Shown: piece by piece, positions 31,029 through 31,903 of the stretch
Layout of the letters: each line of letters begins with the position of its first letter
Position numbering within the stretch: the first letter of the stretch is position 1
Sequence record: NZ_CP090008.1
Source: a plasmid
Length of the DNA stretch: 64,000 nucleotides
Direction: 5' to 3' (one strand)
Program-made: the position numbers and the translations under genes
The notes under the pieces: model-generated
What the model was told of the DNA's origin: nothing
Database searches by the model: none
What the model saw: the letters and a program-made list of their open reading frames with translations, nothing else

Positions 31029-31057
31029 TTGACTTAGATCAGTGATTTTGATAAAAT
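31029..31057 (+). promoter_or_regulatory. Near-consensus sigma-A promoter for a plus-strand small RNA
   Basis: -35 TTGACT, 17-bp spacer, -10 TAAAAT. No ORF downstream. The predicted transcript of about 120 nt ends at the terminator at 31147-31183. Confidence 0.5.
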
Positions 31058-31063
31058 TGTGTT

Positions 31064-31183
31064 AGAAAAAAGAAGTTGAGGAGTCACTCAACTTCCATGT
31101 AAAGCCGTTAAAAAGACGGTGGCTAGTTTAAACGAAGATAATCCGTCTTACTTCGCCAAAAGTGGGGACGGATTATTTTTTGT
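31064..31183 (+). ncRNA. Candidate cis-antisense sRNA (type I antitoxin-like), about 120 nt
   Basis: Promoter at 31029-31057. 5' hairpin gaaguugag…cucaacuuc. 3' terminator hairpin uaauccguc…gacggauua followed by U7. Fully antisense to the 3' UTR and last codons of the minus-strand peptide gene at 31173-31277. Confidence 0.4.
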
Positions 31184-31277
31184 CATCGTCTTTAAAGAGT
31201 TTGTAGCATAAACCTATTAGAACGATGGTAAAACTACCTAAGCCTAGGATGGTTTGCACAATCTCAAACGCTGTCAA
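31173..31277 (-). CDS. Candidate type I toxin-like peptide, 34 aa (MTAFEIVQTILGLGSFTIVLIGLCYKLFKDDDKK)
   Basis: TTG start preceded by AAGGAGAG. One TM helix plus a charged DDDKK tail, as in Fst/Ldr/TxpA. Its stop codon lies inside the plus-strand terminator stem. Its own minus-strand terminator is at 31072-31098 (stem plus U6). An extended -10 promoter TGATATACT sits about 115 nt upstream. Confidence 0.4.
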   Translation of the reverse strand: MTAFEIVQTILGLGSFTIVLIGLCYKLFKDDDKK

Positions 31278-31903
31278 AATGACTCTCCTTTCTACTAGAT
31301 TTTGAATGCTTGCCCATAGGCATCACTCCTCTCTAATGAATGAAAGCCACCGTCTATCACTTTTCTGCATAAAAGAGTATATCAAATCCATATGATAAAT
31401 CTATATATAATAGTTTAGCTCCTTCCATTGCGAAAAAGAGCTAATATTTTTATTTTCAAATAGACTTTCAACTTGATAAAACATTAATCGAAAAAGTTAC
31501 TTTTCATCCTTCAAAAATTTATTTTAAACATAGAAGTATCACGCTAGCCACAACTTTCCCGCTAAAATTGTTCACAAAGTAACAATTGTCATTACCCCTG
31601 TGCTCCCGCACCTCAAGCAAAAACGCAAGAGAAACTCTTACGTTTTTGTTGCATTAATATTCCACAGTTTACTTATCTATCTTGGGAGATGGTACATAGA
31701 TAAACTATCTAAGAAGTAATATAGCACAATATAATCTAAATGGCAATCGTCATATAATCTAATTCTATTGTTTTCTCATTTACAAAGTAATTATTTAGCC
31801 ACATAAATCTAATTATCAATTCGTCATCAAAATCTAAAATATTATTAGATTACTAATTATGAACATCTTTGAGTTGAGGTATCCTTAATTACAATTTAAC
31901 TAG

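Follow-up and report, generated by a model that had tools for sequence, protein, structure and literature searches.

The stretch of DNA examined here, referred to as the window, comprises 64,000 nucleotides (nt) of plasmid DNA from sequence record NZ_CP090008.1. The window contains a compact cassette in which a minus-strand open reading frame (ORF) for a 34-amino-acid (aa) membrane peptide, the candidate toxin, converges on the gene for a plus-strand small RNA (sRNA), the candidate antitoxin. The cassette is very likely a toxin-antitoxin system of type I that belongs to the TxpA/RatA (Hol_Tox) family. No second copy of the cassette was found in the 64-kb window beyond positions 31029-31391, either by tblastn or with a covariance model of the sRNA built in this work, which has a single match in the window (141 bits). 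The elements of the cassette are listed below.

31029..31057, plus strand: antitoxin promoter, scan score 10/12 consensus positions
31064..31182, plus strand: RatA-like antitoxin sRNA of ~120 nt, from the predicted transcript, its fold, Rfam RatA and the covariance model of this work
31064..31096, minus strand: toxin mRNA terminator, hairpin 31096..31071 followed by U6, from the terminator scan
31064..31370, minus strand: predicted toxin mRNA of ~305 nt, folding free energy (dG) -90.2, z -3.8
31114..31124, minus strand: 3' arm of a long-distance pairing, AGCCACCGUCU (mRNA sense), within the antitoxin-covered region
31173..31277, minus strand: toxin ORF, TTG start, 34 aa, MTAFEIVQTILGLGSFTIVLIGLCYKLFKDDDKK, from the ORF listing
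31264..31317, minus strand: upstream ORF (uORF) from an upstream ATG (31315-31317), 17 codons, MGKHSKSSRKESHFDSV, from frame analysis
31285..31290, minus strand: toxin Shine-Dalgarno (SD) sequence AAGGAG, 7 nt 5' of the TTG, read from the sequence
31345..31355, minus strand: 5' arm of the long-distance pairing, AGACGGUGGCU, a perfect 11-nt inverted repeat with 31114-31124
31376..31384, minus strand: toxin promoter, extended -10 TGaTATACT, read from the sequence and the alignment

The two predicted transcripts and their shared hairpins

The antitoxin promoter is made up of a -35 element TTGACT (31029-31034) and a -10 element TAAAAT (31052-31057) separated by a 17-nt spacer, as stated in an earlier, sequence-only reading of this DNA, and the spacer also contains an extended -10 TG (31049-31050). 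This extended -10 (TGnTAnAAT) occupies the same alignment position in related loci. Transcription from this promoter is predicted to give the sRNA of about 120 nt, with a 5' hairpin, that the earlier reading had anticipated. The predicted sRNA folds into three hairpins (dG -40.8 kcal/mol, z = -5.4 relative to shuffled sequences). A purine-rich 5' tail precedes hairpin 1 (31072-31095), which has 9-bp arms at 31072-31080 and 31087-31095, while hairpin 2 (31104-31120) has a conserved sequence (CCGUU...ACGG) in which covariation was never seen. The terminator hairpin (31135-31179) has 13-nt arms at 31135-31147 and 31167-31179, and its stem reaches approximately 16-20 bp in the predicted fold. The hairpin is followed by six T residues (31176-31181) rather than the seven reported.

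The toxin ORF has the properties previously attributed to it, namely a TTG start with a good SD sequence, one transmembrane helix and a charged tail. The helix is N-terminal and spans residues 6-24 (mean of 2.11 for the best 19-residue Kyte-Doolittle window), and the tail reads KLFKDDDKK. The SD sequence is partly paired in the predicted mRNA fold and is located within the block GAAAGGAG, which is nearly invariant across the aligned related loci. The extended -10 of the toxin promoter lines up with TGnTATAAT or TGnTATACT in the other loci, and with the Rfam rli28 consensus at its 5' end, and the -35 element is poor (TATAGA, 18-nt spacing). The mRNA is predicted to start at approximately 31368-31370. 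Judged against the consensus, the toxin promoter is predicted to be weak and the near-consensus antitoxin promoter much stronger. The Rfam rli28 model (RF01492, full model) matches positions 31207-31391 of the toxin strand with 60.3 bits (gathering score 45), and the match corresponds to the 5' untranslated region (UTR) of the toxin mRNA plus the start of the ORF.

The 3' arm of the antitoxin terminator stem contains the toxin stop codon, TAA (31173-31175), in agreement with the earlier reading, and the 3' UTR of the toxin mRNA is wholly complementary to the antitoxin. Complementarity between the sRNA and the toxin mRNA is perfect over the final ~120 nt of the mRNA, a segment that takes in three sense codons and the stop at the end of the ORF. 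The RNAs do overlap at their 3' ends as had been proposed, with the overlap comprising the whole sRNA (~115-120 nt) rather than about 100 nt. Furthermore, the toxin terminator and antitoxin hairpin 1 are one DNA segment; the scan calls the toxin terminator as a hairpin at 31096..31071 followed by TTTTTT, which is the sRNA 5' hairpin read in reverse, exactly as suggested from the sequence. Both RNAs consequently share both hairpin terminators.

Family assignment and conservation

The region consists of AT-rich DNA, and the promoter scan found 18 promoter-like matches compared with 18.0 expected from shuffled sequences. Since this count is at chance, motifs alone prove nothing and the case for the cassette rests on homology and conservation. 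The peptide matches the Pfam Hol_Tox family (PF16935) with 32.3 bits relative to a cut-off of 23.3, with residues 1-34 aligned to profile positions 1-34. The earlier reading had called the peptide Fst-like and had also pointed to TxpA-type and par RNA families; the TxpA suggestion is borne out by the Hol_Tox match, and the Fst and par suggestions are not. No match at E <= 10 was obtained for the peptide with Pfam Fst_toxin, for positions 30700-31700 with Rfam fstAT/par RNA, or for the window with Rfam BsrG (RF01412), a model on which two relatives give 22-23 bits against a gathering score of 55. The labels Fst, BsrG and CopA/ctRNA were rejected for lack of matches. On the NCBIfam PepG1 equivalog model (NF041589), the 34-aa form scores 34.7 bits and the annotated 44-aa form 44.1, both below the cut-off of 70, and a 47-aa Lactococcus homologue scores 92.3. 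Frame analysis likewise indicates that the two in-frame starts typical of PepG1 are absent from the window. The sole Protein Data Bank relative of the toxin, a weak match (E 0.075), is 7NS1, the nuclear magnetic resonance structure of the S. aureus SprG1-31 toxin (PMC8309996). A phage holin assignment was also considered and rejected, as the best PHROG holin match is weak (E 0.0096, 17 bits) and, in the Javan prophages with the cassette, a separate holin and lysin are already present upstream of it.

On the strand opposite the toxin, directly downstream of the ORF, the Rfam RatA model (RF01776, "RNA anti-toxin A") matches positions 31054-31142 (E 3.3e-4). Conservation was assessed using 17 fetched loci from S. 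salivarius megaplasmids, Streptococcus prophages, Enterococcus and Lactococcus plasmids, and Listeria; a scan of contigs provided four close streptococcal loci, and diversity came from tblastn searches against plasmids and phages. The query for the protein homology search was a padded toxin translation of 41 aa. All 17 loci contain an rli28 match in the toxin sense and an antisense RatA match past the ORF in the same geometry, with RatA scores of 46.7 to 85.9 that are mostly above the gathering score of 49. The score is 53.3 for a sibling locus (L001, ~90% identical) and 50-86, in the same place, for homologues that are more distant.

The covariance model of the sRNA, built from five streptococcal copies, also recovers the enterococcal, lactococcal and Listeria-type copies, and the same three hairpins are folded by 11 sequences (the window and ten homologues). 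Plain MAFFT/RNAalifold misaligned hairpin 1 in distant sequences and under-called this hairpin, and the alignment fitted to the covariance model was used instead. In this alignment 22 of 31 sRNA pairs have compensatory changes and 93.4% of cells are paired, compared with 30-55% when partners are slid by 1-3 columns; the observed values were reached by none of 500 shuffles. The helix shared by hairpin 1 and the toxin terminator has compensatory changes at all nine pairs across the loci.

The toxin reading frame is conserved in a manner that suggests translation. The TTG start and SD sequence are invariant in 17/17 loci, and the ratio of nonsynonymous to synonymous change (pN/pS) is 0.29 in the toxin frame compared with 0.83 and 1.71 in the other frames. 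Among the 34 codons, 31 vary at the third position, 17 at the first and 12 at the second. These results indicate that the ORF is under purifying selection and evolves as a coding sequence. Together, the family membership, the 17-locus architecture, the covariation and the coding signature uphold the original proposal of a type I toxin-antitoxin pair with convergent RNAs that overlap at their 3' ends in the style of txpA/ratA. The locus is an uncharacterised new member of a described family with its elements all intact.

Two loci depart from the common arrangement. In L007, from a metagenome-assembled genome of Streptococcus sp. (JAFHAZ010000037.1, 1351-1720), the toxin has a stop at codon 8 (Q8*) and the toxin promoter and leader have been replaced, and the antitoxin with its promoter is intact and nearly identical to that of the window. 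A locus that has lost the toxin and kept the antitoxin is as expected of a harmful toxin gene, and is consistent with the toxin being selected against and an orphan antitoxin being tolerated. In L016, from an Enterococcus contig (OR846588.1, 253-818), two RatA-like genes scoring 85-86 bits each lie ~440 nt apart and flank one intact toxin ORF with a different leader. This locus looks like a tandem or rearranged cassette array.

The cassette is widely distributed on mobile DNA. It is found at ~90% identity in seven streptococcal megaplasmids, with 1-4 matching places per record, and at 75-78% identity in the Streptococcus prophages Javan269, 424, 426 and 638, where it is unannotated and located between the lysis genes and the recombinase. 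At the protein level, tblastn identifies homologues in 331 plasmid records, of which 312 are from Enterococcus and the rest from Lactococcus, Streptococcus and Melissococcus; homologues are also present in Listeria and Enterococcus contigs. The plasmid homologues are annotated as "putative holin-like toxin" or "pepG1". The earlier reading had noted that the cassette is missing from the ORF track; in public data, an identical product is listed by NCBI as "putative holin-like toxin (plasmid)".

Upstream start codon, long-distance pairing and proposed function

The leader of the toxin mRNA contains a second potential start codon. In the window this ATG is located 40 nt from the TTG in frame +1, with an SD-like GGAG 8 nt before it, and the resulting uORF ends 4 codons into the toxin ORF. 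The upstream ATG and its own SD-like GGAG are kept in 17/17 loci, at a distance of 39-43 nt from the TTG. Three of these have the ATG in frame, which gives a PepG1-like form of 47 aa, and the other 14, including the window, have it out of frame; consequently, only the short toxin form is possible in the window. In 11 of the 14 out-of-frame loci the uORF ends within 15 nt past the TTG. Within the streptococcal branch, and in the greater part of the enterococcal-plasmid branch, the ATG of the long isoform has been shifted out of frame to give a uORF of 14-19 codons that ends on or just past the TTG. In the Javan424 and Javan638 prophages, the TGA stop of the uORF overlaps the toxin TTG (TTTTGA). 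The upstream ATG may have a role in structure or in coupling, or it may be left over from the long isoform. The start codons assigned to the toxin family in public records vary as well, with products of 25, 28, 34, 36, 40, 44 and 47 aa. A doubtful ATT start is required for the 44-aa NCBI product that is identical to the window peptide, and the ATG of a 40-aa call in E. faecium overlaps the SD sequence itself. Because the SD sequence and TTG are conserved, the 34-aa core product is favored.

The two 11-nt arms listed above are paired in the minimum-energy fold of the toxin mRNA, and an anti-SD-like CUUUC lies directly 3' of the 5' arm. This 5'-3' duplex has an energy of -20 to -37 kcal/mol in 15/17 loci, compared with -14 to -19 for shuffled 5' segments, and its ends contain wobble and compensatory changes among loci. 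The pairing is absent in two loci only, L007 and L016. The distal 5'-3' pairing of the window is -23.1 kcal/mol, compared with about -30 in sibling loci. The antitoxin covers the 3' partner of this clamp, and its binding might release the mRNA 5' end for decay, beyond forming a substrate for RNase III; in modelling of the antitoxin-bound state the 5' end is freed in 8/10 homologues, which is a hint only. A scheme in which translation of the uORF is linked to that of the toxin, or acts as a gate for it, much as in mok/hok, in addition to the antitoxin freeing the mRNA 5' end for decay, seems rather unlikely.

By analogy with txpA/RatA, bsrG/SR4 and sprG/SprF, the abundant sRNA would form a duplex with the final ~120 nt of the toxin transcript, which would then be cut by RNase III or otherwise destabilized, and translation may be lowered too. 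Following plasmid loss, the labile sRNA would not be replenished, and the structured, longer-lived toxin mRNA would be translated. The peptide would then insert into the membrane and cause growth arrest or lysis, as with SprG1 peptides and TxpA, and the net result would be post-segregational killing that stabilizes the plasmid. Several components of such a mechanism have been established for relatives. Toxicity, antisense neutralisation and RNase III cleavage were shown for TxpA, EF3263 and SprG1-3 (PMC2887945, PMC8167048, PMC6393307). The txpA/RatA duplex is degraded by RNase III, and SprG/SprF is subject to down-regulation at the RNA level (PMC8167048, PMC6393307), with the SprG/SprF mechanism described in PMC6393307 and PMC8309996. 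Membrane damage has been reported for SprG1 peptides and TxpA (PMC8309996).

A number of observations weigh against this interpretation. The toxin promoter, with its poor -35, falls below the threshold of the promoter scan (9/12 consensus positions) and was not called. The RatA score of the window (41.9 bits) is under the Rfam gathering score, at the low end of the continuous series that it forms with the scores of the related loci. The compensated pairs were counted in an alignment that had been fitted to the model. Furthermore, both strands of the hairpins are transcribed, and for this reason covariation cannot tell which RNA needs them. Modelling of the antitoxin-bound mRNA gave no consistent change in the accessibility of the SD sequence or start codon, and translational repression is therefore not claimed. 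Finally, the role in plasmid maintenance is argued from context only, and the likelihood that the cassette has this role is evenly balanced.

Other functions can be envisioned for the same genes. The peptide could be secreted for use in competition, with the sRNA merely restraining self-harm and no contribution to plasmid maintenance. The toxin shares its protein family with PepG1, SprG1 peptides are extracellular and lyse competitors and erythrocytes (PMC8167048, PMC8309996), and S. salivarius megaplasmids carry bacteriocins (PMC6787328). However, the frame of the upstream ATG precludes the long isoform, which is the more cytolytic one, a signal peptide is absent and no transporter gene adjoins the cassette, and the PepG1 score of 34.7 is far under the equivalog cut-off, making this an unlikely function. 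Release of the toxin when infection stops synthesis of the labile antitoxin would instead make the cassette an abortive-infection or phage-defence module. The neighboring genes encode a DUF4238 protein and an SNF2/Eco57I-like giant protein, and the same region of related megaplasmids contains AbiG, TIR-domain and anti-CRISPR genes. Nevertheless, phage defence is quite unlikely given that prophages carry the same cassette beside their lysis and recombinase genes, and that the papers examined describe no anti-phage phenotype for the toxin family.

Two further alternatives deny that the locus encodes a working toxin. The minus-strand RNA might be a non-coding regulatory sRNA containing an incidental small ORF, as its rli28 score is above gathering and rli28, which is associated with virulence in Listeria, has been treated as an sRNA in the literature (PMC7838569, PMC6064168). 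This is extremely unlikely in view of the pN/pS values and third-position variation of the ORF, the invariant SD sequence and TTG, and the Hol_Tox match of the peptide, and an overlapping toxin-like ORF was already noted by Anast and Schmitz-Esser (PMC9484302). The rli28 match in the window is better described as the leader of a toxin mRNA than as a stand-alone sRNA. It is also very unlikely that the cassette is a decaying, non-functional relic; the early stop codon of L007 and its lost leader and promoter illustrate such decay in a relative, and the 5'-3' pairing of the window is slightly weaker than that of its siblings, but both promoters, the SD sequence, the TTG, the ORF, the 11-bp pairing and the three hairpins are all intact in the window.

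Comparison of the putative toxin-antitoxin cassette with described systems places it close to several of them. The window locus and TxpA/RatA, from the skin element of B. subtilis, share a small Hol_Tox toxin with an N-terminal transmembrane helix, an sRNA similar to the RatA model and a location on mobile DNA. In contrast, TxpA has 59 aa rather than 34, B. subtilis RatA is 222 nt compared with ~120 nt for the window sRNA, and the RatA score of the window is just below the Rfam threshold. The TxpA family was expanded to 118 members, including streptococcal members, by Fozo et al. 2010 (PMC2887945), and the length of the window sRNA is closer to that of an enterococcal RNA; E. faecalis EF3263 is a toxic member of the TxpA family with a ~110-nt antisense RNA to its 3' UTR (PMC2887945). 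The S. aureus systems sprG1/SprF1 (PepG1) and sprG2-4/SprF2-4 are related through the protein family (PepG1 similarity and the weak 7NS1 match), and also have a 3'-overlapping antitoxin, carriage on mobile elements, and an upstream SD-equipped start plus an internal start. The upstream SD-equipped ATG gives a long toxin isoform in S. aureus SprG1 and lactococcal PepG1, whereas the window falls below the PepG1 cut-off and has an out-of-frame upstream ATG with a 17-codon uORF and a TTG start for the short form. TxpA/RatA and SprG/SprF are overlapping classes in T1TAdb, which uses SD/anti-SD and 5'-3' interactions as descriptors (PMC8594479).

The direct homologues of the cassette are the rli28/bsrH-like ORF/ratA locus of L. 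monocytogenes plasmids (pLM80 etc.) and the rli28-RatA locus of S. agalactiae prophages. These plasmid or prophage loci have the same Rfam pair in the same geometry, with the toxin ORF within rli28, and ~53% peptide identity to the window (the Listeria locus is L017 in the alignment). The Listeria and S. agalactiae loci are backed by RNA-seq, whereas the transcripts of the window locus are predicted. In S. agalactiae prophages rli28 and RatA are 60 bp apart (PMC6064168), and the Listeria locus ranks with the most strongly expressed parts of its plasmids (PMC9484302). The par system (Fst/RNA II) of pAD1 resembles the cassette in its convergent RNAs, bidirectional terminator, small transmembrane toxin and plasmid-stabilizing role, a role that is putative for the window. 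However, its toxin is from another family, represented by the Fst_toxin Pfam and fstAT Rfam models that have no match here, and its key contacts are 5' direct repeats over the translation start, in contrast to the window, where complementarity is confined to the 3' end.

Genomic setting and neighboring features

The cassette is flanked by the following genes.

29984-30778, plus strand: LexA/S24-type repressor gene
31904-32743, minus strand: DUF4238 gene

The sequence-only reading had placed the cassette on an integrative and conjugative element. However, the flanking 24 kb matches S. salivarius-group megaplasmids only (92-96% identity), and the G+C content of the window (34.2%) is close to that reported for pSAL813 (34.9%). 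Most likely, the cassette is carried by an S. salivarius megaplasmid of the pSAL813 type. With this cassette, a type I toxin-antitoxin module that is probably functional joins the S. salivarius megaplasmid inventory; the genome announcement of the likely source plasmid mentions only PezTA. Knowledge of this module is of practical use for annotation and for plasmid-stability or curing work in probiotic S. salivarius strains, and leaves the understanding of such toxin-antitoxin systems unchanged.

Three other features of the window were observed during these searches. A 74-aa, very hydrophobic ORF at 55047-55271 (plus strand) is the only other tblastn match to the toxin (weak, E 0.012); it lacks a RatA-like partner and is apparently an unrelated small membrane protein. 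The rli38 family (RF01470) matches 27028-27168 (minus strand) with 70.6 bits against a gathering score of 49, and is the only other above-gathering Rfam match in the 64-kb window; this Listeria sRNA family is also found on streptococcal mobile DNA. The best promoter match in the region, TTGAGA-17-TATAAT (11/12), is located at 30946..30918 (minus strand), and is followed ~30 nt further on by a bidirectional terminator hairpin at 30879..30845 and then TTTTCTCTTG. Together, this promoter and terminator (30838-30946, minus strand) predict a minus-strand RNA of ~70 nt, and this segment is conserved beyond its flanks relative to pSsal-YU10.

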